Of a DNA stretch of 64,000 bases, positions 2,679 through 54,496 are shown piece after piece; position 1 is the stretch's first letter, and each line of letters starts with the position of its first letter. The notes below the pieces were generated by a model. That model did not search any database and was not told where the DNA came from. It worked only from the letters and a program-made list of their open reading frames with translations. The stretch lies in the IMG/VR virus record IMGVR_UViG_3300045988_117710, one strand, 5' to 3'. A program made the translations under genes and the position numbers. The DNA is from a virus.

Positions 2679-3875
2679 GTGAAAGAATTTAAAGATATGA
2701 TTATGAAGGAAGCAAAGGAAGAGATGTTAGCTTTACAACATCCTTATGTAGATTCATCTCATTTAATGTTAGCTTTACTTCGTTCTAGTGATTTCGGTGG
2801 TTCAAGAGAGTTTATGATGCGTCATGGTATTTCTTATGAGTTGTTCTATGATACTATAATAGAAGTAATTGGTAAGGGTACGGTAGAGGATAAGAATACT
2901 CCTTATACTCCTGCTCTTAAACAAGTATTGAGTGCTTATACAGGAATGGCAAAGAAGAGACAGAGTGATGATCCTTCGTTAATTATGTTATTATGTTTAC
3001 TTCAGTTCTATGAAGGTGTTGGTATTCGTTTATTGATGAATATCGGTGTTGATATAGATGATTTAATTGAGGACCTTGAAGAGTTATTGGATAATTCTTT
3101 AGATAAGTTACTTAAGAAGTATGGATGTCTTACTGATTTAAATAAAGAAGTTCGTGAGAATAACACAGTGGTTACTGGGTTGGATGAGCAATTACAACAA
3201 TTGTGTAAGTATCTTTTAAAGATTCAGAAACCTAATGTTATTGTTTTAGGTGAACCTGGTGTTGGTAAGACAGCTCTTGTTGAGAAGTTAGCTGTTGCTA
3301 TTAATGAGAAGAAAGTTCCTAAGTTTCTTCAGGATTTAAGAGTTATTCAATTATCTTTAGGTTCTGCAGTTGCTGGTACTAAGTATCGTGGTGAATTTGA
3401 AGAGAAGATTAATGGAATAATTGAAGCGATGACTAAGAAACGTAATGTTATTCTATTTATTGATGAGATTCATATGATGGTAGGTGCTGGTGGAGCCGAA
3501 GGTGCTATTGATGCTTCTAATCTATTTAAACCGGTATTAGCTCGTGGTAAGATTAGAATGATTGGTGCAACTACTAATACAGAGTATAAAGAGTTTGTAT
3601 GTTCTGATAAGGCATTTGCTAGACGTTTCAATACTATTGAGATTCTAGAAACTACTGAAGAAGAGACTATGGCAATTTTATCTAAAGCAAAGGTTAAGCT
3701 TGAGAAACATTATGAGATTAAGCTTACTCATAATGATTTGGTTAAGGTTTATAAGGAAGCTACTCATAGAAGTGGTAGAATGCCAGATGTTGCTTTAGAT
3801 GCTTTAGAGGAATATTGTGTTGACCTTTATTATAATAGAGAGTCAGAGAAGGAAACTGAAGAGGTGAGTGTTTAA
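2679..3875 (+). CDS. Clp-type AAA+ ATPase (Clp_N repeats plus single D1 nucleotide-binding domain)
   Basis: Clp N-domain repeats (HLMLALL, SLIMLLCLL); Walker A GEPGVGKTALVEKLA; Walker B ILFIDEIHMMVGAG; KYRGEFEEK and ARGKIRMIGATT match the ClpA/B/C D1 domain; no second AAA domain. Confidence 0.75.
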   Translation: MKEFKDMIMKEAKEEMLALQHPYVDSSHLMLALLRSSDFGGSREFMMRHGISYELFYDTIIEVIGKGTVEDKNTPYTPALKQVLSAYTGMAKKRQSDDPSLIMLLCLLQFYEGVGIRLLMNIGVDIDDLIEDLEELLDNSLDKLLKKYGCLTDLNKEVRENNTVVTGLDEQLQQLCKYLLKIQKPNVIVLGEPGVGKTALVEKLAVAINEKKVPKFLQDLRVIQLSLGSAVAGTKYRGEFEEKINGIIEAMTKKRNVILFIDEIHMMVGAGGAEGAIDASNLFKPVLARGKIRMIGATTNTEYKEFVCSDKAFARRFNTIEILETTEEETMAILSKAKVKLEKHYEIKLTHNDLVKVYKEATHRSGRMPDVALDALEEYCVDLYYNRESEKETEEVSV

Positions 3876-4525
3876 TGAGTGTTATTATTGCAAAGAAGAT
3901 TAAGAATGGTTTTGTTTTAGCAGGTGATTCTCAAGGTACTGTTGGTACTCATAGAACTACTGTTACTAAGATATTTAAAGCTCCTAAAGAGGAGAATGTA
4001 TTTATTGGTGTGGTTGGTAGATTACGTGATGCTAATATAGTTGCATCTGTAGATAGTATTTTAGATTCCAATGCTATTCGAAGAGGTAACTTGGACGCTA
4101 ATAGTTTAGTTTCTTATACTGTTCCTGAACTTCAGAAGTCTTTAAAGGAACAAGGTGCTTTATCTGTTGATGGTGGATTGCTTTGTTGGAATTCTGAAAT
4201 TATTATTGTTTATAAAGATAAGGCATTCTTAATTGATTCAGACTTTTGTGTTATTGAGATAGATGATTTTGCTGCAATTGGTGCTCCACAGGATTTTGCT
4301 TATGGTGCATATGCAATTCTTAAGAAGTTTAAATCTAAGTTACCTAAGTTGTCTGATTTTGATTTAGTCAAAGAGATTATGAAGATGACTATTGAAGAAA
4401 CTATTCATGTGTTCTATCCTATTTGGATGGTTGATACTAGTACAACTAATGCAGATTTCATAGAATTCAAGGGTTCAATTGTTGAGGAAAAGAAATCTAC
4501 AAAAGATAGTAAGGAAGAGGAATAA
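3875..4525 (+). CDS. hslV: HslV-like Ntn-hydrolase peptidase (proteasome beta-like)
   Basis: N-terminus [24 protein letters not shown] aligns with HslV [41 protein letters not shown] aligns with IAIGSGGPYAQAAARAL; Ser replaces Thr at the nucleophile position; start overlaps the ATPase stop (ATGA). Confidence 0.65.
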   Translation: [216 protein letters not shown]

Positions 4526-6171: not shown

Positions 6172-6186
6172 TTGAAAGGATTATTT

Positions 6187-6630
6187 ATGAAGATTATTCT
6201 AGATGAAGATGTTAAGGGTAAAGGTAAGAAAGGTCAGATGATAGAAGTTGCTGATGGTTATGGTTCTTTTCTTATCAGAAGTAAGAAGGCATCTTTAGCT
6301 ACTGAAGGTGTTATCAATAAGTGGAAGAGAATTCATGAAGAAGAAACTTTACAAGATAATTTGATTAGAAAAGAAGCAACTAATCTAAAGAATTTGATTG
6401 AGAAAGAAACATTTACTTTTAAGGTTAAAGCTGAAAATGGTAAGGTGTTTGGTTCTATTACAAGTTCTGATGTTGCAAAGAAACTTAATGAGAAGTATTC
6501 AAATCAAACTATTAAGATTGAGAAGAAGGATATAACTATTCCTAAGACTTCTACTTTAGGTGTTTATCAAGCCAAGGTAGTTCTTTACAAGGATATTGTA
6601 GCTGTGGCTTCTATTAATGTTTCTGAATAA
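6187..6630 (+). CDS. rplI: ribosomal protein bL9 homolog
   Basis: MKIILDEDVKGKGKKGQMIEVADGYGSFLI aligns with E. coli L9 [31 protein letters not shown]; length 147 aa; RBS AAAGGA 6 nt upstream of ATG 6187 (track ORF starts at TTG 6172). Confidence 0.8.
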   Translation: MKIILDEDVKGKGKKGQMIEVADGYGSFLIRSKKASLATEGVINKWKRIHEEETLQDNLIRKEATNLKNLIEKETFTFKVKAENGKVFGSITSSDVAKKLNEKYSNQTIKIEKKDITIPKTSTLGVYQAKVVLYKDIVAVASINVSE

Positions 6631-7225: not shown

Positions 7226-7517
7226 CTTGGAAGAATTTAAACCAAGAGATTTTTCAACTATTGCTCGTCAGATACAAGATGTTATTGAAAGAGATTGTAC
7301 TTTCAGTAGTTGCAGGAGACGAGAATTAATTAATGAAATTGATAGGTGTATCAAAGATAACTTTTATCGAGCTCCAGAATTAGCTTTCGAGAGTTGGAAT
7401 GATTTAGCAAATGTTCTTAATTCCTATTTAGTCCCAAGTAATTCTAGATGGGAGACAGAGATTATGTGTATCTTTGGTGATTTAGGACCTGTTGATGATT
7501 ATTGGGATGGTGATTAG
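7215..7517 (+). CDS. hypothetical protein
   Basis: ORF track. Confidence 0.4.
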   Translation: MVISLEEFKPRDFSTIARQIQDVIERDCTFSSCRRRELINEIDRCIKDNFYRAPELAFESWNDLANVLNSYLVPSNSRWETEIMCIFGDLGPVDDYWDGD

Positions 7518-7518
7518 T

Positions 7519-8349
7519 ATGGGAAAGGAAAAGAAGAATACTTTAGGAACAAGGATGAAGGAGTATGAAGCTGTTAGTAAGAATCATCTGATGAGAAGAA
7601 CTCCTGTTGTTATAAGATTGGATGGTAAAGCATTTCATACTTTTACTAGAGGTTTAAATAAACCTTTTGATTCTGATTTTGTTACTATGATGCAACAAAC
7701 TATGTTACATTTATGTGAGAATATTCAAGGATGTGTTTTAGGTTATACTCAATCTGATGAGATTACTTTAGTCCTTGTTGATTATCAGAATAGAGATTCT
7801 TGTGCTTGGTTTGATAATCAAGTTCAAAAGATTGCTAGTATTAGTGCTAGTATGGCTACTCTATACTTTAATAGAGAGTTGTCTGAAATGTTGAGAGATT
7901 TAGAAGAGGATTTGGCTGCTGCGGATTATAGTTTACCTCAAGCTCATATGTATGAAACTAATTCAAAGAAGTATGATAAGTGGTATGATAAAGAGTATAG
8001 AGCTGTGTTTGATTCTAGGGTGTTTAATTTACCTCAATATGAAGTTATTAATAATTTGATTTGGAGACAGCAAGATGCAACTAGAAATTCTATTAATAGT
8101 GTTGCTCAAAGTCTTTTCTCACATAAGGAACTTCAAGGTATTAGTAGTAAGGATCTTCAGAATAAGATGTTAACAGAGAGGGATGTCAATTGGAATGATT
8201 ATCCAACACATCTTAAACGTGGTTGTTGTGCGATTAAGGATTCTGAAGGTAAGTGGGTTTTAGATATCAATATTCCTATTTTTACTGAAGATAGAAATTA
8301 TATTGATAGGTTGGTCTTTTTAGAGGATGGTGAAGAGAATGCTATTTAA
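7519..8349 (+). CDS. Thg1-like protein (tRNA-His guanylyltransferase family 3'-5' nucleotidyltransferase)
   Basis: VVIRLDGKAFHTF matches Thg1 VVVRLDGRNFHRF; GYTQSDEITLVL matches AYGQSDEYSFVF; ASISASMATLYF matches ASQFASSYVFYW; start uncertain (7519 or 7555). Confidence 0.75.
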   Translation: MGKEKKNTLGTRMKEYEAVSKNHLMRRTPVVIRLDGKAFHTFTRGLNKPFDSDFVTMMQQTMLHLCENIQGCVLGYTQSDEITLVLVDYQNRDSCAWFDNQVQKIASISASMATLYFNRELSEMLRDLEEDLAAADYSLPQAHMYETNSKKYDKWYDKEYRAVFDSRVFNLPQYEVINNLIWRQQDATRNSINSVAQSLFSHKELQGISSKDLQNKMLTERDVNWNDYPTHLKRGCCAIKDSEGKWVLDINIPIFTEDRNYIDRLVFLEDGEENAI

Positions 8350-9388: not shown

Positions 9389-9668
9389 GGGACGTCTTAA
9401 GTTACCATGTAAGGAAGGTACTGTTGATGTTATTAAAGCCAATGCTGATGCTTTTCTAGATGTTGTTGAAACTGAATTTACTTGTTGTGAGTATGATATT
9501 TATGAAGCAGAGTATAATAATGAAGATGTTGTTATAATTGATTATAATATTATGGCTCATACTGTTGCTACTTGTAAGAGTGAGTTATCACATTTCAAGA
9601 AGGAGATTAAGAGATTCTTCAGAGAAAAGCCAGAGAATATTATTAGTATGACTTATGATAAGATTTAA
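9366..9668 (+). CDS. hypothetical protein
   Basis: ORF track; followed by terminator hairpin and promoter motif. Confidence 0.4.
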   Translation: MSLKKGIKGRLKLPCKEGTVDVIKANADAFLDVVETEFTCCEYDIYEAEYNNEDVVIIDYNIMAHTVATCKSELSHFKKEIKRFFREKPENIISMTYDKI

Positions 9669-13045: not shown

Positions 13046-13252
13046 ATGGTTTCATTGAAGATTATTGTTCAAAACGGTAATGTTGATGCAGCACTTAGAA
13101 AGTTAAAAGCTTCTTTAGGAAACTCTGGTACTATTCAAGCTCTTAAGGAGAAAGAATACTACATTAAACCTGGTGAGAAGAGAAGACTTAAGAAAGAGCA
13201 AGGCATCAAGAACTGGAGAAAACAACAAAGAAAAATGAATAACTATAGATAA
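13046..13252 (+). CDS. rpsU: ribosomal protein bS21 homolog
   Basis: KIIVQNGNVDAALRKLKASL and EKEYYIKPGEKRRLKKEQ align with bS21 ([20 protein letters not shown] and RREFYEKPTTERKRAK); possible true start TTG 13055 with RBS AAAGGAG upstream. Confidence 0.75.
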   Translation: MVSLKIIVQNGNVDAALRKLKASLGNSGTIQALKEKEYYIKPGEKRRLKKEQGIKNWRKQQRKMNNYR

Positions 13253-13379: not shown

Positions 13380-13562
13380 ATGAAAAAGTTACGTAGAAGT
13401 ACTAAAGATTATTGTTTTATGGGAGTATGTGGTGGTTTAGCTGAGTATTTCGATATTGATTCTAGTATCGTTCGTCTTATTTGGTTAGCTGCTGTGTTAT
13501 TTTTTGGCTCTGGTATTTTATTATACTTGATTATGTGTTTAGTATTACCGAAGGAGGTGTAA
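13380..13562 (+). CDS. PspC-domain membrane protein
   Basis: [38 protein letters not shown] matches the PspC domain ([20 protein letters not shown]...GGSGILLYI); RBS GGAGG upstream of ATG 13380. Confidence 0.7.
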
Positions 13563-13564
13563 TT

Positions 13565-15796
13565 ATGAAGATACAAAAGAGAAGTGGAAAGATAGTTGAT
13601 TTTGATGAAGTTAAAATTGGTATTGTTTTAGATAAAGCTTTTTCTGACTTTCCAGATATTGAAGCCAAAGATGTGAAGAAAGCCAAGAGTGCTATTATAT
13701 CAGTTATTCGTGAGGAAGCTGCTTTACATCAAGATGATGAACTTTTCTCTGTTGAAGATTGTCAAGATTTAATTCAATCTACCATGCGTAAGTTAGGTTA
13801 TCGTAAGGTTGCTAATAAGTTTAAAGAGGTTCGTGAAGAGAGAGCTTTCAATAGAGAACTTACTGTAGTTTTTGATGCATTGTCTAATAAGGATACTGAA
13901 GAGAAGACAGATAATGCTAATGTTAATGGATATACTCCATCTGGTAGACATCTTCATGTTTCTGAAGAAGTTATTAAGCTTCATTCTATGAGAGAAGTGT
14001 TTAGTAAGGATGTTGTGAAGGCCGTAAAGCGTGGAGATTTCTATATTCATGACAGAGGGTGGACTGGTACTGGTTCTTTAACTTGTTGTCAAATTGACTT
14101 AGAAAAGCTTCTTAAAGGTGGTTTTTCAACTGGTCATGGTTGGTTACGTGAACCATCTAATATTAAGACTGCAATGTTACAAGCTGCAATAGCAATTCAG
14201 TCTAATCAAAATGACCAACATGGTGGTCAATCTGTTTATAATTTTGATTTATATATGGCTCCTTATCTTATGAAGTCTTATAGAAAACATATTTTAGACC
14301 AATTATATTCTTTTGTTAGATATAGTGGTTATGATTTAGAGTTAGATGAAGAATATATTGAACAATATATTAAGGATCCAAATACTATTACTGATTTTAC
14401 TGTAGATGCTGGTGCTAAAGCTCTTTATGAGTGGACTCCAGAAACTAAGAAGAATTTATTTATGAATGTAGATCTTATGGATACTTATGTTAAGATTTGT
14501 ACTGAAGCTCATAGAAAGACTGTTGATGATACAAATCAAGCTGCAGAGTCTATTGTTCACAATTTAAACTCTATGGCATCTCGTGCTGGTAGTCAAGTTC
14601 CATTTAGTTCTATTAACTTTGGTTTAGGTTCTGATGAGGCAAGTAGACAAGTTTCTATTTCTTTACTTAAGGCACAAATGGATGGTTTAGGTAATCATGA
14701 GACACCTATATTCCCAATTCTTATTTATGAGTTAAAGAAAGGTATTAATTTTAATCCTGAAGATCCTAACTATGATATATTCAGATTAGCAATGGAATGT
14801 TCTAGTAAGAGATTATTCCCAACTTATGCTTTTATGGATGCTTCATTTAATTTACCTTTATTCAATCAAGATCCTGTAACATTTAAGAATATTGTTGCTT
14901 ATATGGGTTGTAGAACTCGTTTAGGAACTAATTGTAATGGTAAAGAGGGTTCTGGTTCTAGAGGTAATTTATCATTTAATACTATTAATTTACCTTTATT
15001 AGCATTAGATTCTAAAGGTAATATAGATAAGTTTTATAAGTTGTTACAAAACACTTTAGAGTTATGTGATAAAGCTCTTTTAGAAAGATTTGAATTACAA
15101 TGTCAATTCCAAAAGAGAAATTTCCCAAGTCTTATGGGACAAGGTATTTGGATGGATTCTGATGATTTAGATGATTTTGATGAAGTTCGTTCTGTCCTTA
15201 AGCATGGAAGTTTAGGTATTGGATTTGTTGGTTTAGCTGAATGTCTTAAGGTTCTTACAGGTAAACATCATGGTGAATCTAAAGAAGCTGATAAGTTAGG
15301 TTATGAGATTGTTAAGTATATGAAAGATTATACTGATAGACGTACTAAAGAGATGAAACTTAACTATGCTACTTTAGCAACTCCTGCTGAAACTTTATGT
15401 AAGACAGCATTAGAGCAAACAAGAAGAATCTATGGAGTTATTGAAGGTGTTACTGATAGAGCTTACTTCACTAATTCAATGCATGTTCCTGTTTATTATA
15501 ACATTCATGTAGATGAGAAGATGAAGATTGAAGGAAAGTATCACAAGTTATGTAATGGTGGTCATATTGCATATGTAGAAGTAGATGGAGATATTAGTCA
15601 AAATCTAGATGCTTTCGAAGAGATTCTACATATTATGTCTGATAATGATGTTGGATATGGTGCAATCAATATTCCAATTATAGAGTGTCCTATATGTCAT
15701 CATAGTTTTAGAGGTAGTTCAGATATACACATTTGTCCTAACTGTTCTTACGATGAATTAGTAGGAATAGATATAGATTGTGATTGTGGAAAGTAG
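13565..15796 (+). CDS. nrdD: anaerobic ribonucleoside-triphosphate reductase NrdD (class III), lacking the C-terminal glycyl-radical segment
   Basis: N-terminal ATP cone (MKIQKRSGKIVDFDEV); MGCRTRLG active-site region; C-terminal Zn ribbon CPICHH...CPNCS; no RxxGY motif before the stop at 15796. Confidence 0.85.
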   Translation: MKIQKRSGKIVDFDEVKIGIVLDKAFSDFPDIEAKDVKKAKSAIISVIREEAALHQDDELFSVEDCQDLIQSTMRKLGYRKVANKFKEVREERAFNRELTVVFDALSNKDTEEKTDNANVNGYTPSGRHLHVSEEVIKLHSMREVFSKDVVKAVKRGDFYIHDRGWTGTGSLTCCQIDLEKLLKGGFSTGHGWLREPSNIKTAMLQAAIAIQSNQNDQHGGQSVYNFDLYMAPYLMKSYRKHILDQLYSFVRYSGYDLELDEEYIEQYIKDPNTITDFTVDAGAKALYEWTPETKKNLFMNVDLMDTYVKICTEAHRKTVDDTNQAAESIVHNLNSMASRAGSQVPFSSINFGLGSDEASRQVSISLLKAQMDGLGNHETPIFPILIYELKKGINFNPEDPNYDIFRLAMECSSKRLFPTYAFMDASFNLPLFNQDPVTFKNIVAYMGCRTRLGTNCNGKEGSGSRGNLSFNTINLPLLALDSKGNIDKFYKLLQNTLELCDKALLERFELQCQFQKRNFPSLMGQGIWMDSDDLDDFDEVRSVLKHGSLGIGFVGLAECLKVLTGKHHGESKEADKLGYEIVKYMKDYTDRRTKEMKLNYATLATPAETLCKTALEQTRRIYGVIEGVTDRAYFTNSMHVPVYYNIHVDEKMKIEGKYHKLCNGGHIAYVEVDGDISQNLDAFEEILHIMSDNDVGYGAINIPIIECPICHHSFRGSSDIHICPNCSYDELVGIDIDCDCGK

Positions 15797-15812
15797 TTTA
15801 AGGAGATTTATT

Positions 15813-15968
15813 ATGAGTAACAAAACAGAAAACAAGAAACATATTAATCCTTTATTCAGAAGAATTCAAAGAATTACAGGTTATTTAACTAGTCCTGGTA
15901 GAGAGAATAAGGGTAAGAAAGCAGAGATTGCTGACAGAACTAAGCATACTTCTGTTAAAAATGATTAG
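15813..15968 (+). CDS. stand-alone glycyl-radical peptide (NrdD C-terminal segment as a separate ORF)
   Basis: RIQRITGYLTSPGRENKGKKAEIADRTKH aligns with the NrdD C-terminus RVCGYLGSPDARPFNAGKQEEVKRRVKH; own RBS AAGGAGA 7 nt upstream of ATG 15813; different frame from nrdD. Confidence 0.65.
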   Translation: MSNKTENKKHINPLFRRIQRITGYLTSPGRENKGKKAEIADRTKHTSVKND

Positions 15969-18026: not shown

Positions 18027-18028
18027 TT

Positions 18029-18039
18029 TCGTATATTAT
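18029..18039 (+). promoter_or_regulatory. promoter-like motif variant TCGTATATTAT at head of tRNA/tmRNA island
   Basis: Directly after stop of ORF 17256-18026. Confidence 0.35.
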
Positions 18040-18274
18040 ATTAACAGTTTATTGGTTTTTACTGTTGGATTTACAGCGACGATATTACAACTTAGAAGAC
18101 AAGAGTATAAACTTGATAATTATACAAAGGGGAAGCTGTTGGGAGACCCTGAAACCAATCAAAACAGCGTTTCGAAAGTGTAGTGTCCATATCAGTTATT
18201 GGACGCGATGTGGGCTACACGATTAGATATTGATATTATGGCAAATGGGAGTTCCTTAAAGATTAACATAGGGG

Positions 18275-18357
18275 CCAGATGGTTAGTGGTTCGAGTCCAC
18301 TGTCTCCGACCATTTATTATTTATCGGAGACTAGCTCAATTGGATTAGAGCGTCTGG
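18275..18357 (+). ncRNA. circularly permuted tRNA-like element (3' half, 12-nt linker, 5' half)
   Basis: 18275-18312 reads anticodon-stem 3' strand CCAGA, variable TGGTT, T-arm AGTGG-TTCGAGT-CCACT, acceptor 3' strand GTCTCCG, discriminator A, CCA; after linker TTTATTATTTAT, 18325-18357 reads acceptor 5' strand CGGAGAC (perfect complement), TA, D-arm GCTC-AATTGGATTA-GAGC, G, anticodon-stem 5' strand TCTGG (perfect complement of CCAGA); no contiguous anticodon loop. Confidence 0.5.
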
Positions 18358-18382
18358 GAAATATTACTCCTCGCCTTTATTT

Positions 18383-18768
18383 GGGGATGTTCTGGTTTCG
18401 ACAGTAGGAATGTCATTATGATTGCATGCAGTAGGTTGCTACTTTAAAGGACAAAAACAATAAATGCAAATTTCAAAAACTTTATAGCAAATGTTAAAGC
18501 TTCTTTAGCAAATATGTTTGCTGCTCCAGTTGTAGCTTAGTATAAAACAACTTATCTATAAGAAGATTTACATATGGATGTTCTTATAGATATCGTATAA
18601 ACATATGTAAGACATTGAGGATCCAATAGTCAATGTTTTAATTTATTGGGTAGGTTAAACTTATTGTAGGTGATTAACCTGTAAGATAATAATTACAATC
18701 AAGCATGTGAATGAAATTGTAGGTTGAGTTTTTATTGGACACGAGTTCAATTCTCGTCATCTCCACCA
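18383..18768 (+). ncRNA. ssrA: tmRNA (SsrA), one-piece
   Basis: 5' end GGGGATGTTCTGGTTTCGACAGTAGG matches the tmRNA consensus GGGGCTGATTCTGGATTCGAC; 3' end GGACACGAGTTCAATTCTCGTCATCTCCACCA gives T-arm plus acceptor with a G3-U70 wobble (Ala identity element); internal tag frame GCA AAT GTT AAA GCT TCT TTA GCA AAT ATG TTT GCT GCT CCA GTT GTA GCT TAG. Confidence 0.8.
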
Positions 18769-18769
18769 T

Positions 18770-18843
18770 GCGGGTATCGTTCAGTGGTAGGACCTCTGCC
18801 TTCCAAGCAGACGACGCCGGTTCGAATCCGGCTACCCGCTCCA
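18770..18843 (+). tRNA. tRNA-Gly (anticodon UCC)
   Basis: Manual cloverleaf; anticodon loop CTTCCAA; acceptor GCGGGTA/TACCCGC; encoded CCA. Confidence 0.8.
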
Positions 18844-19234: not shown

Positions 19235-19287
19235 AAATCAATAAGTTCTCTGAATTTATTGATTTTTTATTTTGGTTGTCGTATAAT
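19235..19287 (+). promoter_or_regulatory. terminator hairpin after tRNA-Trp followed by TTGATT, 17 nt, TATAAT promoter (TCGTATAAT)
   Basis: AAATCAATAA loop TTATTGATTT plus T-run (19235-19270); TTGATT 19259-19264; TCGTATAAT 19279-19287. Confidence 0.5.
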
Positions 19288-19303
19288 GTTTGTAAGGAAG
19301 GTG

Positions 19304-20158
19304 ATGATTGTGGGTAGACCTGCAAAGAAAGAACAACTTATTCAACGTTGTGAAGAACTTAATGTTTTCTATAGTGAGAAGATGACAATTAAGGAATTAG
19401 AAGCACTTATTGCTGATAAGGAAAGAGGAATGGTAGCTCCTGTTGTGATTACTGAAGATATGATGACCCCTTATGAGTATTTTCAAAATGTTAAGGATTC
19501 TATTAAGTCTATGAATGACGATGATCTTACTAAGATGTATACTGCTGCAAGTACTTTAATGGAGAAGTATCAAGTATTTGGTCAAGAGAAGGCAGAGAAG
19601 AGATTAGCATTTCATATCAAGACTATTCTTAAGGAACATGATTTATTACAATTGGGAATTAATAAGTTTGTTTATAAAGATGATATTACTAATTACATAG
19701 ATGTTATTAGTAAGAAGCCAGTTAAAATTATTGAGATGAAGAATTTCCCTAGAGAGATTCCTGATGATATGATTGATGTTGTTACGAAGACTAAAGGTAT
19801 CTTTGATGAGTATTATGTTTTATTTACTGATTACTCTGAAGGTGAATTAGTTAAGGAAGTTGAGAAGGAAAGAGATCCAATTTTATTTGGAGGTTTCTGT
19901 ACTAAGAATAGAGATATTGTTTCTGATAGATTCTATTACTTAGGTGATTGGGTTGATGAGTATTGTGATTTAACTTTAGATAAGCTTATTAAGGAGACTT
20001 CTAAAGATATTGTTAAGACTATTTCTATTCCTACTAATAAGGATAAGTTGATTTCTCAACTTAATGCTTACGAAGAGAAAGGTGATAGGTATATAGTAAA
20101 TACACCTAAGAAAGAACATTTCTTCAGTAAGATTAAGAGAGCTTTTAAGGTTAAGTAG
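19304..20158 (+). CDS. hypothetical protein
   Basis: ORF track (19259) trimmed to ATG 19304 with RBS AAGGAAGG; downstream of promoter motif 19279. Confidence 0.4.
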   Translation: MIVGRPAKKEQLIQRCEELNVFYSEKMTIKELEALIADKERGMVAPVVITEDMMTPYEYFQNVKDSIKSMNDDDLTKMYTAASTLMEKYQVFGQEKAEKRLAFHIKTILKEHDLLQLGINKFVYKDDITNYIDVISKKPVKIIEMKNFPREIPDDMIDVVTKTKGIFDEYYVLFTDYSEGELVKEVEKERDPILFGGFCTKNRDIVSDRFYYLGDWVDEYCDLTLDKLIKETSKDIVKTISIPTNKDKLISQLNAYEEKGDRYIVNTPKKEHFFSKIKRAFKVK

Positions 20159-21030: not shown

Positions 21031-21312
21031 GTGATTATAGTGTTGAGTGATACAAATGTTAACTTTATATGTTTTGCAAGTAGGAAGTCTATAAGGAAAT
21101 GGGTAGTTTCTGAAGTTAGATATGATTATGAATGGGATGGATATTGTGTTCATAAGTTAGGTGAGAATGAGTATTGTGAATTTGGAACTCCTTTTGCTGC
21201 TTATAATCATGCAAAGAATATTTCTAATAAGTATAAGAAGAAATACTCTGATGCAGTTGTAATTGTTAAGGAAGTTGGAGTAACAGCGGAGGATCTTGTT
21301 TCGAATGGATAA
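21031..21312 (+). CDS. hypothetical protein
   Basis: ORF track. Confidence 0.35.
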   Translation: MIIVLSDTNVNFICFASRKSIRKWVVSEVRYDYEWDGYCVHKLGENEYCEFGTPFAAYNHAKNISNKYKKKYSDAVVIVKEVGVTAEDLVSNG

Positions 21313-21778
21313 GCCAATTATATTTCTAGATTTTGATGGTGTTGTTGAAACTATTTATTGGGAGAAAGATAAGGACGGTTCTTGGTCTTGGAATGTTCAT
21401 AAGTCTGGGAGAGAAGAACTGAATAATAAACAAGCGATTGGCTGGCTTAATGAGCTTTATAAGAAAGTTCCTTATGACATAGTGGTTTCTAGTACTTGGA
21501 GGATTGGAATGTCTGTTGAAGAGCTTCAAACTCTGATTACTAATTCTGGATTTAATAAAGAAATTAGGGTTTTAGATAAGACTCCTATTCTTTATCAACA
21601 GAGGGGTGTTGAGATTCAGAGATGGATAGATGATAATGATTTTAAAGGGAAGTTCATCATTATAGATGATGATTCTGATATGTGTCATTTACTTCCATTA
21701 CTTGTAAGATGTGATTGTCAGCTTGGTTTTACTATTTATGATTATAATAAAGCATTAAGATTGTTAGATGAATCTTAA
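21296..21778 (+). CDS. HAD-like phosphatase (putative nucleotidase)
   Basis: HAD motifs IIFLDFDGVVET (DxDGV), VVSSTWR, FIIIDDDSD. Confidence 0.5.
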   Translation: MFRMDKPIIFLDFDGVVETIYWEKDKDGSWSWNVHKSGREELNNKQAIGWLNELYKKVPYDIVVSSTWRIGMSVEELQTLITNSGFNKEIRVLDKTPILYQQRGVEIQRWIDDNDFKGKFIIIDDDSDMCHLLPLLVRCDCQLGFTIYDYNKALRLLDES

Positions 21779-25950: not shown

Positions 25951-25956
25951 TAATAT

Positions 25957-26029
25957 CACACTGTATCCAAGTGGTTAAGGAGCCAGATATAGAACTGGTA
26001 ATTCAATGGTTCGAATCCATTCGGTGTGA
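25957..26029 (+). tRNA. atypical tRNA-like gene with noncanonical anticodon arm (identity undetermined; possible pseudogene)
   Basis: Good acceptor (CACACTG/CGGTGTG), D-arm and T-arm AATGG-TTCGAAT-CCATT, but anticodon arm CCAG-ATATAGAA-CTGG is one nt short of 5+7+5 (4-bp stem with 8-nt loop, or 6-nt loop with an A-A mismatch); no encoded CCA. Confidence 0.4.
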
Positions 26030-26076
26030 GTCACTTTCATCTATTTGAAGGCGCAATAGAATAGGTGAAACACTAT

Positions 26077-45104: not shown

Positions 45105-46499
45105 ATGTTAAAAACTAATCTTAACGAAAGTACTTTAATTAAAAAATATTCTCCAATTTTAGAATCAGTTGAAACTGGTTTAAAGAACTTAGGAAGAGAT
45201 GTTGCTGAATTCGATTCTTATAAGAAATATACTTTATCAAGAATCATGGAAAATGCTCAAAACTTAATTGAAACTTATTCAAAAAATAAGGCAATTATGG
45301 AAGCTGGTACTTTCCAAGTAAACAATGTTCCTGCTAAAAACCAATACTTAAAATTAACTGCTGCTGTTTATCCACAATTAGTAGCTGAAAATGTTGCTTC
45401 TGTTCAAGCAATGGAATATAAAGATGCAACTTGCTACTATTTAGGATATACTTATGGAGACAACAGAGGAGAAATCAAAGCTGGTGATTCTATAAGTACA
45501 GTATTCCAAGTTGGCCCAGATTCTGACAAATATGCTGCTTCTACAAGATATGCTTCTGAAGCTATCTCTCAAGAAGAATTAGTTGTTGAAGCTGGTGAAG
45601 CAAAACTTGCTTGGGGACCAGTTATTCCTGGATCAGTTGCTATCGATATTGATGGTACTGGTGCTACAATCGTAACTGATGACGGTTTAGGTGCATTATC
45701 TGACGGTGGTGCTATTGATTATGCTACTGGTACAATTACTGGTGCTACAATCGTTGAAGGTGCTAAAGCTGATTACAAACAAAATCTAGAATATGCCCCT
45801 GCTCAATTACCATCTGTTAGCTTAGATATTAAACCTTTATTCTTACATGCTAAACCTAAAGCATTAAGAACTGCTTATAGCTTAATTGGTGCATTCGATT
45901 TACAACAAACTCAAGGTTTAGATGCACAAAAATTATTAAGCAACTTAGCTACTGACGAATTAAGATGTGAAATCGATGGAGAAATCTTAAATGATATAGC
46001 TTCATTACCTGCTTCTGCTGCAGCTGGTGTAGTTACATGGAATATGGAAGTTCCATTTGGTATCAATAAGAAAGAACATTATGAAAGCTTATACTTCAAA
46101 ATTATTGAAGCTGGTTCAATCATCAAACAAGTTACTCGTAAATACGAAGGTAACAGAGTTATCGCTGGATTCAACGCTAACTATGTATTAAAAACTTTAG
46201 ATGAATTCAAAGCTGCTTCAACAAGAAATAGTGTAGGTCCTGTTGTTTCTGGTACTTTAGCTGGTGACTATACAGTTATCTATAACCCATATATTGGTGA
46301 AGATGATTTCACAGTATTATATCAAGGTCAAACATTTGACACAGCTTATATCTATGGTGTTTATATGCCTATCGTTTCTAGCCAATTCATTATGGATGAT
46401 ACTTTACTAGGACGTCAAGGATATGCTACAGAATACGCTAAATCATTTGTTAACCGTAAATATGTAGTTAAAGGTAAAATTACTCACAACGTTGCTTAA
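45105..46499 (+). CDS. major structural protein, probably major capsid protein
   Basis: 464 aa; codon usage differs from neighbours (prefers AAC, TTC, TAC, GAA, AAA); strong terminator directly downstream; own RBS AGGAGAAAAG. Confidence 0.4.
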   Translation: MLKTNLNESTLIKKYSPILESVETGLKNLGRDVAEFDSYKKYTLSRIMENAQNLIETYSKNKAIMEAGTFQVNNVPAKNQYLKLTAAVYPQLVAENVASVQAMEYKDATCYYLGYTYGDNRGEIKAGDSISTVFQVGPDSDKYAASTRYASEAISQEELVVEAGEAKLAWGPVIPGSVAIDIDGTGATIVTDDGLGALSDGGAIDYATGTITGATIVEGAKADYKQNLEYAPAQLPSVSLDIKPLFLHAKPKALRTAYSLIGAFDLQQTQGLDAQKLLSNLATDELRCEIDGEILNDIASLPASAAAGVVTWNMEVPFGINKKEHYESLYFKIIEAGSIIKQVTRKYEGNRVIAGFNANYVLKTLDEFKAASTRNSVGPVVSGTLAGDYTVIYNPYIGEDDFTVLYQGQTFDTAYIYGVYMPIVSSQFIMDDTLLGRQGYATEYAKSFVNRKYVVKGKITHNVA

Positions 46500-53168: not shown

Positions 53169-53211
53169 AGTCAACAATATTGTTGACTTTTTCTTTTGTT
53201 TATCGTATAAT
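53169..53211 (+). promoter_or_regulatory. palindromic terminator overlapping a full consensus promoter (TTGACT, 17 nt, TATAAT with TCG)
   Basis: GTCAACAAT/ATTGTTGAC palindrome 53169-53188; TTGACT 53183-53188; 17-nt spacer; TCGTATAAT 53203-53211; drives the PARP-like gene. Confidence 0.55.
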
Positions 53212-53236
53212 AGAGACAATGAAAGAGGTAATGTTT

Positions 53237-54496
53237 ATGAAATTTGCAAAGTTAATTATGATTACTGAAGACAATCACAATAAAGAGTATATAATGACTC
53301 AGATTGATTCTTCAACATTTAAAGCTGAATGGGGTAGGGTTGGTTCTAGTTATCAATCAACTACTTATTCTATGTATGAGTGGGATAGTAAGTACAAATC
53401 TAAAGTTAAGAAAGGTTATAAGGATATATCAAATCTAGTTGAGAAGGTTACTGTAGATGGTGATGTTAAGACTTTACCTTATGACTATATTACTAATAAG
53501 TCTGTCAAGGATATTCTTAATAGATTGTATCAATATACTGATTCTTACTTAAAGGAAAACTACTTAGTTAATACTGTAGATGTTTCCAAAGCACAAATTG
53601 ATGAAGCTTATAAGATTATTGATGAGCTTGAAAGATTAGCTTATTCAAGACATTTAGATGTTCGTGAAGTTAATAGAAATTTAATTAAGTTATTTGAAAC
53701 AATTCCAAGACGTATGTCTAGAGTTAAAGATTATTTATGTGATGATTCTATTACTAAAGATAAGGTTGATGAAAAGATTCGTGCTGAGTTAGATATGCTT
53801 AAGACTATGTCAGATGCTGTTGAGTTAAGACTTAAGAAACAAGCTGCAAGTAAGAAGACTACTAAGGTTGAGAAGTTATCTGAATCTGAACAAAAGGATA
53901 AATTACTTGCTGATCTTGGATTAGTTGTAGAGGATGTAACTGATGAGGATATTAAGTTTATTAAGAAACAATTAGGTGAAAGTTCACACTTATTTAAGAA
54001 AGCTTGGAAGATTACTAATCCTGCTACTGAAAAGAGATTTAATGATTTAGTTGCTACTGATGATTTCAAAGGTAAGGAAGTTAAATATTATTGGCATGGT
54101 TCTAGAAATCAAAACTGGTATAATATTATTCAAACAGGATTAACTGCTAATCCTAAGGGTGTTAAGATTACTGGTAAGATGTTTGGTTATGGTATCTATT
54201 TTGCACCTAAAGCAAAGAAGAGTGTTAACTATACTTCTCTTGAAGGTTCTTATTGGGCAAGTGGTAATGATAAGAGTGGGTTCATGGCTTTATTCGAAGT
54301 TGCTATGGGTAATGTGTTAGATGTTTATGATCATCATTACTGGTGTTCAAGAACTAACAAAGAAGAGATGTGGAAACATAACAAGTGTCATACTTTATAT
54401 GCTCACGAAGGTAGAGGTTTCTTATACAATGATGAAGTTATTGCATATGATGATGCACAAGTTAATATTAAATATATAGTGGAGTTGAGTAGATAA
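53237..54496 (+). CDS. PARP-like ADP-ribosyltransferase with N-terminal WGR domain
   Basis: WGR motif FKAEWGRVGS; catalytic signature YYWHGSRNQNWYNIIQTGL (H-G-S), GKMFGYGIYFAPKAKKSVNY, and LYNDEVIAYDDAQVNIKYIV aligning with PARP1 [20 protein letters not shown] (catalytic Glu present); ATG 53237 after RBS AAGAGGT (track ORF 53180). Confidence 0.75.
   Translation: MKFAKLIMITEDNHNKEYIMTQIDSSTFKAEWGRVGSSYQSTTYSMYEWDSKYKSKVKKGYKDISNLVEKVTVDGDVKTLPYDYITNKSVKDILNRLYQYTDSYLKENYLVNTVDVSKAQIDEAYKIIDELERLAYSRHLDVREVNRNLIKLFETIPRRMSRVKDYLCDDSITKDKVDEKIRAELDMLKTMSDAVELRLKKQAASKKTTKVEKLSESEQKDKLLADLGLVVEDVTDEDIKFIKKQLGESSHLFKKAWKITNPATEKRFNDLVATDDFKGKEVKYYWHGSRNQNWYNIIQTGLTANPKGVKITGKMFGYGIYFAPKAKKSVNYTSLEGSYWASGNDKSGFMALFEVAMGNVLDVYDHHYWCSRTNKEEMWKHNKCHTLYAHEGRGFLYNDEVIAYDDAQVNIKYIVELSR

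Follow-up and report, generated by a model that had tools for sequence, protein, structure and literature searches.

Does the genome of a large phage encode a transfer-messenger RNA (tmRNA, the product of ssrA) that could rescue stalled ribosomes, and if so, what would the virus gain from it? The question is raised by a locus in DNA of 64,000 nt from IMG/VR virus record IMGVR_UViG_3300045988_117710, the whole of which is referred to here as the window. An earlier note, made from the sequence alone, had placed a one-piece tmRNA gene at positions 18383 to 18768, and this placement proved to be exact. ARAGORN reported a complete one-piece tmRNA gene of 386 nt, with its CCA encoded, at 18383-18768(+), and the Rfam family RF00023 matched 18383-18768(+) over its full length (model positions 1-374 of 374) with 98.2 bits against a gathering score of 47 (E=4e-37); the span is identical at both ends. 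These were the checks that the earlier note had proposed: both call a tmRNA, and the covariance model did fold the sequence. The 5' end reads GGGGATGTTCTGGTTTCGAC / GGGGAUGUUCUGGUUUCGAC and the 3' end reads ...GGACACGAGTTCAATTCTCGTCATCTCCACCA / ...GGACACGAGUUCAAUUCUCGUCAUCUCCACCA, as had been quoted. We conclude that the locus is probably a functional phage-encoded one-piece tmRNA gene of the Bacillota type, which has every testable defining feature of that type except a convincing second stem in its first pseudoknot.

Every helix of the predicted fold was checked pair by pair, with 18382 added to the tmRNA numbering to give the window position. The 5' strand of the acceptor stem, GGGGAUG (18383-18389; tmRNA 1-7), pairs at seven of seven positions with CAUCUCC (18758-18764; tmRNA 376-382), the third pair being G3·U70, and sequence and pairing place the 3' strand, the discriminator A and the CCA at 18758-18768. 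The T-arm, ACGAG-UUCAAUU-CUCGU (18741-18757), has five of five pairs (tmRNA 359-363 with 371-375); both this arm and the acceptor with its G3-U70 wobble had been recognized correctly before. The base of helix 2 (18400-18410) consists of a tandem G·A/A·G (18400-18401 with 18738-18739) followed by helix 2a, in which C20-A28 form nine pairs with U347-G355 (18729-18737). The conserved UUCGAC element is present as well, and the long helix 2 links the tRNA-like domain with the ring of pseudoknots. Further in, the 5' strand of helix 2d, UUGCAUGC (18422-18429), forms 8 bp with GCAUGUGA at 18703-18710 (tmRNA 40-47 with 321-328). Helix 5 (18528-18552), AGUUGU/ACAACU, pairs at six of six positions (tmRNA 146-151 with 165-170) and holds the UAG stop codon of the tag reading frame in its loop.

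Downstream of the tag, three perfect H-type pseudoknots follow one another, all of their pairs being canonical. The second pseudoknot (PK2; 18553-18608) is formed by a first stem of 10 bp, UAUCUAUAAG/CUUAUAGAUA, and a second stem of 7 bp, ACAUAUG/CAUAUGU; PK3 (18611-18649) by stems of 8 bp (GACAUUGA/UCAAUGUU) and 6 bp (CCAAUA/UAUUGG); and PK4 (18652-18699) by stems of 7 bp (AGGUUAA/UUAACCU) and 6 bp (AUUGUA/UACAAU). PK1, upstream of the tag at 18430-18461, is small; its first stem (AGUAG/CUACU, 5 bp) is clear. In a simple pseudoknot scorer, the region after the tag scored 121 compared to 81.6 +/- 11.8 for dinucleotide shuffles and lay above 200 of 200 of them, so that its pseudoknot content is far beyond chance. 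The scorer is noisy in AT-rich RNA (PK4 was misassigned, and spurious knots were called) and was used solely for this shuffle comparison and for a coarse survey of relatives.

The tag open reading frame (ORF) occupies 18466-18540: it resumes at GCA 18466, runs for 24 codons and ends at UAG 18538-18540. The encoded tag is ANFKNFIANVKASLANMFAAPVVA, which amounts to 25 residues with the alanine of the charged RNA. The start at 18466 is assigned because three lines of evidence agree: ARAGORN places the resume codon there, immediately after an A-rich single strand (AAUAAAU); in the Rfam alignment, AAUAAAUGCAAA is matched to the consensus AAUAAuUGCaAA at a high posterior probability; and in relatives where the resume codon can be located it falls at tmRNA positions 83-87, the window having 84. 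From those positions the relatives' frames are open. The tag ORF proposed in the earlier note thus had the right frame and the right stop; its start was wrong, since the true one lies seven codons upstream, giving 24 codons rather than 17. The tag is long, hydrophobic and nonacidic and ends in PVVA.

Relatives of the gene were found by scanning viral, metagenome and genome collections for sequences that had both the 5' motif UGGUUUCGACAG and, in the T-arm, the motif UGGACACGAGUUC. No match to the tmRNA was found among GenBank phages by blastn or in IMG/VR by an exact 20-mer scan. The window tmRNA is ~60% identical to every other member of the family. Covariation was assessed by landmark-anchored pair counting over 29 distinct tmRNA sequences; a MAFFT alignment of the ends was dropped, as it misregistered the 5' end and helix 2d. 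The G·U at acceptor pair 3 and the tandem G·A are each invariant (29/29), acceptor pairs 4-6 show compensatory double changes, and T-stem pairs 1-2 change compensatorily, to G-C/G-C in the sequences related to that of Clostridium sp. CAG:710. All 29 sequences have canonical pairs at positions 3-9 of helix 2a, where as many as six pair types occur. In the window, pairs 6, 8 and 9 of this helix (U-A, G·U and G·U) are likewise canonical, and the U-A at 6 and the G·U at 9 are unique to it among the 29. Equivalents of helix 2d occur at the same place with other sequences (ACAAGU/ACUUGU, GCAGC/GCUGU and CUGCAGU/ACUGUAG), and in the coarse survey the relatives had two to four H-type pseudoknots at comparable positions with unrelated sequences.

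The closest relative is a strain (L194) whose tmRNA is 97.2% identical to that of the window, with 11 of 386 positions differing. All three of its stem substitutions turn an A-U pair into a G·U pair: A18558 to G in PK2, giving G·U; A18633 to G in PK3, giving U·G; and A18652 to G in PK4, giving G·U. Seven other changes lie in loops or linkers, and the last is a synonymous AAC to AAU change at codon 5 of the tag, within the segment that the earlier reader had omitted. Over the adjacent tRNA-Gly gene the two strains show ~20 differences. Because the stem changes keep pairing, the tag change is synonymous and the neighboring tRNA differs far more, the substitution pattern is, as judged from these sequences, that of a gene selected for its fold, i.e., under purifying selection. 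Another pair of related loci (L130 and L132) differs in the tag by UCU/UCA, AAC/AAU and CUA/UUA, all synonymous, and by K/R and I/V. The covariation over 29 tmRNAs and the strain comparison together support a selected and apparently functional gene. Of the four pseudoknots for which a covariance check had been suggested, the stems of PK2 to PK4 thus hold up, since three of three changes in the strain preserve the pair; the second stem of PK1 shows no covariation that would support it.

Several points weigh against the conclusion that this is a working tmRNA. The second stem of PK1 (GUUG/CAAU) is weak, amounting to merely 4 bp, one of them a G·U. With the rest of the family at ~60% identity, the covariation in PK2 to PK4 rests on one close strain. 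Among relatives that are ~65% identical in a neighboring gene, no tmRNA lies within 5 kb of it; therefore, not every member of the wider group has one. When the window was searched in six frames by tblastn with SmpB of CAG:710 as the query, the best E was 1.3, and hence no SmpB was found. Finally, the protease that would read the tag is a guess. Lon is the most likely candidate, because the long tags of mycoplasmas are Lon degrons: according to PMC8403727 (and Gur and Sauer 2008 as cited there), proteins carrying the long hydrophobic/aromatic mycoplasma ssrA tags are degraded by Lon and not by ClpXP.

The earlier note had recommended looking for a phage smpB elsewhere in the genome. None turned up in Pfam scans of the window ORFs or in the precomputed Pfam lists for the flanks (8 kb to the left and ~10 kb to the right), a search that covered about 82 kb of the ~179-kb genome, and on this ground the host is presumed to supply SmpB. 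It can be envisioned that the tmRNA is transcribed together with the flanking tRNAs; as the gene lies within a tRNA array, it is probably cotranscribed and processed with them. Host RNase P would make its 5' end, and the encoded CCA would be exposed once RNase P had cut the neighboring tRNA-Gly at its 5' end and one base had been trimmed. The host alanyl-tRNA synthetase would then charge the RNA by way of G3·U70, and host SmpB and EF-Tu would bring it to ribosomes stalled on broken or stop-less mRNAs. Translation would resume at GCA 18466, alanine and the 24 encoded residues would be added, and synthesis would end at the UAG. The ribosome would thereby be freed, and the hydrophobic C-terminal tag would mark the product for an ATP-dependent protease.

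The likely benefit to the phage would be extra capacity for ribosome rescue during infection, at a time when mRNAs and tRNAs are cut. Such a role fits the genes that surround the tmRNA. The tRNA-Gly(UCC) gene (18770-18843, plus strand) begins 2 nt past the 3' end of the tmRNA, with one spacer base between them, and is followed by genes for tRNA-Cys, tRNA-Asp and tRNA-Trp; in total, ARAGORN and Rfam find 23 tRNA genes between 18770 and 29774. In related phage loci a tRNA likewise lies 1-4 nt downstream of the tmRNA. The window further encodes the ribosomal proteins bL9 (6172-6630) and bS21 (13046-13252), a Thg1-like tRNA repair enzyme (7492-8349) and a HAD domain of the type known from "Swiss Army Knife" RNA-repair proteins (21296-21778). 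The gene context reported earlier (about 22 tRNAs, bL9, bS21 and a Thg1-like enzyme) was therefore essentially right, with 23 tRNAs found and the three proteins confirmed, and to read it as extensive manipulation of host translation is plausible, to judge by the genes present.

The ending of the tag in VVA rather than the usual LAA had been remarked upon, and the ending is indeed present; as a peculiarity of the phage it probably does not stand, since comparable long hydrophobic tags occur in related phages and in CAG:710. Related phage loci encode the 23-codon tags GNILKQFSNKVKSLFTLNSVAFA, GNIFSKIANRVKSLFTANAVALA and GNIFSRVANKVKSLFSFNSVVYA. In CAG:710 the tmRNA gene lies directly downstream of those for RNase R and SmpB, the classical rnr-smpB-ssrA locus, and its tag is GNKIKEAFASMFNKNAVAFA; the end of the window tag, ...KASLANMFAAPVVA, aligns with ...KEAFASMFNKNAVAFA of CAG:710. 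The related phage tags and the CAG:710 tag end in a hydrophobic residue, any residue and alanine, and all of the compared tags of this lineage are long, lack the acidic residues of the Escherichia coli tag and have a positive mean hydropathy. We therefore regard the long hydrophobic tag and its VVA ending as probably a trait of the lineage, and the gene itself was probably captured from the host lineage. As a separate observation, many human-gut contigs of up to 226 kb (the L143-L180 group) carry a related tmRNA with the predicted tag AKKLYHVNNAPAMMAAAAC, which ends in Cys, unusual as a final residue; in the loci fetched for this group, smpB was not detected.

Other features bear on the host. 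The nearest isolated phages by capsid protein, Listeria LIS04, Bacillus SP-15 and HSE3, and Streptococcus GXN1 (29-36% identity), infect Bacillota. The genome scan found the same motifs of the tRNA-like domain (TLD) in Bacilli and Erysipelotrichaceae metagenome-assembled genomes (MAGs) as well. Among 70 ORFs in the window, 35 end in TAG, 33 in TAA and 2 in TGA, and TGA stops are also scarce in the strain relatives (L187, L189, L190 and L194). The CAG:710-type bacterial loci (L151-L182 group) use TAA 18 times, TAG 15 times and TGA not at all among 33 stops, and the other groups are conventional. This shared bias, taken from a small and overlapping bacterial sample, is only a hint that ties the phage to the CAG:710 lineage. 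The possibility that TGA serves as a sense codon was rejected: it is nearly unused as a stop yet is not read as sense.

If the tag is a lineage trait that a host protease would read, an alternative is that it is specific to the phage and not a copy of a host degron, in which case it might spare tagged proteins from the host protease or route them to proteins of the phage's own. The window encodes a gene pair at 2679-3875 and 3875-4525(+), also present in other assemblies, whose stop and start codons abut. The first product is a truncated ClpC with the N-domain and the D1 AAA module alone, matching residues 12-397 of Bacillus ClpC with an E of 1e-63, and its nearest ClpC relatives are also from Bacillota; the second is a 216-aa protein of the proteasome/HslV family that has no sequence relative among solved structures. 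A phage-specific tag would be consistent with the presence of these adjacent proteins, the one with Clp_N and AAA domains, that strong match to ClpC and the other of proteasome type (2679-4525), with the PVVA end, where the nearest bacterial and phage tags have AFA, ALA or VYA, and with the hydrophobicity of the tag, the highest of the compared set. However, the D2 module is missing from the ATPase, the second protein is recognized only weakly as a peptidase (Pfam E=1e-5, and no PDB sequence matched), and 14 kb separate the tmRNA from the pair. Support for a link between the tag and the pair does not go beyond their presence in the same genome. In IMG/VR the ATPase has one distant relative and the peptidase none, so no co-occurrence can be demonstrated. 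We consider a phage-specific tag improbable. A stronger form of it, a phage-run circuit for protein disposal in which the tmRNA writes the 25-residue PVVA-ending tag and the phage's own truncated ClpC (N-domain and D1) and proteasome-like peptidase read it, is slightly less probable; if true, it would make ribosome rescue and amino acid recycling independent of host proteases during infection.

It is very unlikely that the RNA is a decoy, which would titrate host SmpB or block host trans-translation rather than rescue ribosomes. That no phage smpB was found would fit such a role, and there is a precedent, since a TLD-only RNA of mycobacteriophage DS6A has been proposed to act in this way (PMC4131195). 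Another viral contig (L119) carries, at 9430-9516, a miniature tmRNA-like gene that is reduced to the tRNA-like domain (GGGGAUGUGAAUGGUUUCGACACG...GGACACGAGUUCGAUUCUCGUCAUCUCCACCA), lacks a tag region and recalls the DS6A RNA. The existence of that TLD-only gene likewise favors a decoy, but the gene studied here keeps its whole mRNA-like domain, with helix 5 and three pseudoknots intact and maintained, and its relatives with a readable tag keep the frame open, with synonymous and conservative changes. None of this would be needed in a decoy, and it is the maintenance of the entire mRNA-like domain that makes that role so unlikely.

Less probable again is that the gene has no phage role, being a recent capture from a host, a decaying pseudogene or misassembled host DNA. 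The absence of a tmRNA near the homologous gene in the ~65% relatives might suggest as much, as might the occurrence of some related tmRNA loci in MAGs labeled as bacteria. Two such MAGs (L181 and L185, labeled as Bacilli and Clostridia bacterium) have the same tRNA-tmRNA-tRNA array as a phage locus (L001) and probably represent phage contigs binned into MAGs. Exact-protein lookups found the locus also on two contigs (179,133 and 179,328 bp) that had been assembled independently from samples of the Human Microbiome Project, and a 182-kb contig represents a strain in which a neighboring protein is 94% identical; at least three independent assemblies, with contigs of 179-182 kb, thus share the arrangement. 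The independent assemblies and the substitutions, which show purifying selection, are what make this explanation unlikely, and the gene is also flush with phage tRNAs and shares no more than ~60% identity with the similar bacterial tmRNAs that turned up. A two-piece (permuted) tmRNA, or an attP integration-site fragment in place of a complete one-piece gene, can be dismissed almost outright: temperate phages often carry ssrA 3' fragments (PMC9004378), and the permuted model RF04321 reached 45.5 bits at 18256-18507, just under its gathering score of 47, but that alignment is a chimera in which the T-arm and ACCA of an upstream tRNA-like module are joined, across a 70-nt insert, to the 5' half of the real tmRNA, whereas the one-piece model matches at full length (98.2 bits) with its own T-arm and acceptor strand, and no integrase was seen in the window.

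That tRNA-like module, which lies outside the tmRNA at 18269-18375(+) and ends 7 nt before it, has the permuted order of Y RNAs of the YrlA type. A T-arm is followed by a 7-bp acceptor-like stem, GUCUCCG/CGGAGAC, whose loop begins with ACCA, and then by a D-arm. Put differently, the 3' half of a tRNA (anticodon-stem strand, T-arm, acceptor strand and ACCA) is followed 12 nt later by a matching 5' half in the order acceptor strand, D-arm and anticodon-stem strand, and the rejoined halves fold in silico as a cloverleaf. The element matches the YrlA model RF02553 over its full length (1-114) with 26.9 bits, below the gathering score of 69 (E=7e-4), the middle helix of the model being deleted in the alignment, and it is kept in the close strain L194, where a single A-U pair has become G·U. 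In 18027-18382 there is no match to the Ro60-binding motif GNCGAAN0-1G, and no TROVE/Ro60 gene was found in the Pfam scans of the window ORFs or the gene lists of the 18 kb of flanks. No paralogue of the element was identified, and four related phage loci gave no YrlA match. We rejected the label "circularly permuted tRNA gene," because the element is better described as YrlA-like in topology or as left over from tandem tRNAs; complementary acceptor stems between adjacent tRNAs are common in these loci. It could be a tRNA mimic that resembles Y RNAs and has diverged from them, or else what is left of two tandem tRNAs.

The tmRNA sits on a phage genome. All genes of the window are on one strand, and they include a T4-type major head protein (45105-46499), tail sheath and baseplate domains, and genes of DNA and nucleotide metabolism. 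The lineage is common in human samples: a 110-aa protein belonging to it is indexed in 74 collection blocks, stool cohorts included. Just downstream of the tRNA cluster, a 299-aa protein (19259-20158, plus strand) has 2,145 homologues at E<=1e-20 in large Bacillota phages (L001-L080). It is likely the product of a mobile gene, because some phage records annotate it as a transposase, and loci reached through it are accordingly not necessarily those of close phage relatives. The relatives of intermediate distance to which it led had no tmRNA close by. The tRNA at 25956-26030(+), which scores 44 bits with the Rfam tRNA model, has an 8-nt anticodon loop in which ARAGORN reads a four-base anticodon, "atag," ambiguous between Tyr and Leu. 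The gene for the anaerobic ribonucleotide reductase NrdD appears to be split, 13481-15796 and 15780-15968(+): the glycyl-radical end, which makes up the last ~30 positions of the profile, falls in a short ORF that overlaps the first in a different frame. The split recurs in strain L194, and a frameshift, a split gene or recoding could explain it. The PHROG label "polymerase" for a 438-aa protein (53180-54496, plus strand) was rejected, since the protein has a PARP catalytic domain instead (Pfam E=1e-21) and is a candidate ADP-ribosyltransferase, not a DNA polymerase.

These results leave the current understanding of tmRNA unchanged. What they add is a clean, structurally complete phage tmRNA from a common human-associated phage lineage, together with the finding that long tags resembling one another are shared by the tmRNAs of a whole group of large Bacillota-type phages, and that a tag of this sort also exists in one lineage of bacteria, CAG:710. 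Two questions become testable: whether phage tmRNAs simply top up the ribosome rescue of the host, and whether tag similarity and stop-codon bias can aid in assigning hosts to uncultured phages. Furthermore, the translation-maintenance island formed by the 23 tRNAs, the Thg1-like enzyme, the RNA-repair HAD protein, bL9 and bS21 fits the idea that such phages shield translation from RNA-cutting defenses.

The gene is reminiscent of several known systems. With bacterial RF00023 tmRNAs, such as those of CAG:710 and of Bacilli and Erysipelotrichaceae MAGs, it shares the TLD with G3·U70, the tandem G·A, helix 2, the stop codon in the loop of helix 5, and PK2 to PK4, along with a PK1 whose second stem is weak here. 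With the CAG:710-type ssrA it also shares the motifs UGGUUUCGACAG and UGGACACGAGUUC, although both were required by the scan, and a long, nonacidic, hydrophobic tag in which KASLANMFAAPVVA resembles KEAFASMFNKNAVAFA. Unlike the CAG:710 gene, which lies at an rnr-smpB-ssrA locus, it is located on a phage genome within a tRNA array; the two RNAs are ~60% identical, and the bacterial tag resumes with Gly, has 20 codons and ends in VAFA, where the window tag resumes with Ala, has 24 codons and ends in PVVA. The long tags of mycoplasmas, as described in PMC8403727 (and Gur and Sauer 2008 as cited there), likewise amount to ~25 residues if the charged Ala is included, have many hydrophobic and aromatic residues, and are devoid of an acidic N-terminal motif of the adaptor type; they show no clear sequence homology to the window tag, and the host is apparently not a mycoplasma. 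The upstream module compares with the YrlA-type Y RNAs (RF02553; PMC4201824) in having a T-arm, a 7-bp acceptor-like stem-loop, a D-arm and an outer closing stem, and the YrlA RNA of Mycobacterium smegmatis has a 7-bp stem, too, and is cut by RNase P (PMC4201824). It differs from them in its subthreshold score and in lacking the Ro60 motif and one helix of the model, and two truncated tandem tRNAs could mimic the arrangement.

The closest counterparts are other phage tmRNAs, which the earlier note had called rare. In number this is fair, as they occur in about 2.3% of isolate genomes (402 of 18,146; PMC9004378), yet such genes are well known from earlier work, which lists tmRNAs for cluster C mycobacteriophages and Bacillus phage G (PMC4131195) and reports them for huge phages, with SmpB also among the reported phage genes (PMC7162821). 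Like those of the cluster C mycobacteriophages (e.g., Bxz1), Bacillus phage G and the huge phages (PMC4131195, PMC7162821, PMC12484599, PMC9004378), the window tmRNA comes from a complete ssrA in a large, tRNA-rich phage of lytic type, and in all of them function has been deduced from sequence alone. It differs from the known examples in having no sequence match among GenBank phages and in a host lineage that probably belongs to human-associated Bacillota; the tag of phage G, AKLNITNNELQVA, is far shorter, and the SmpB reported in huge phages has no counterpart in the ~82 kb searched here. Phage tmRNA is thus an already documented category of gene, of which the one described in this study is a further well-formed example.

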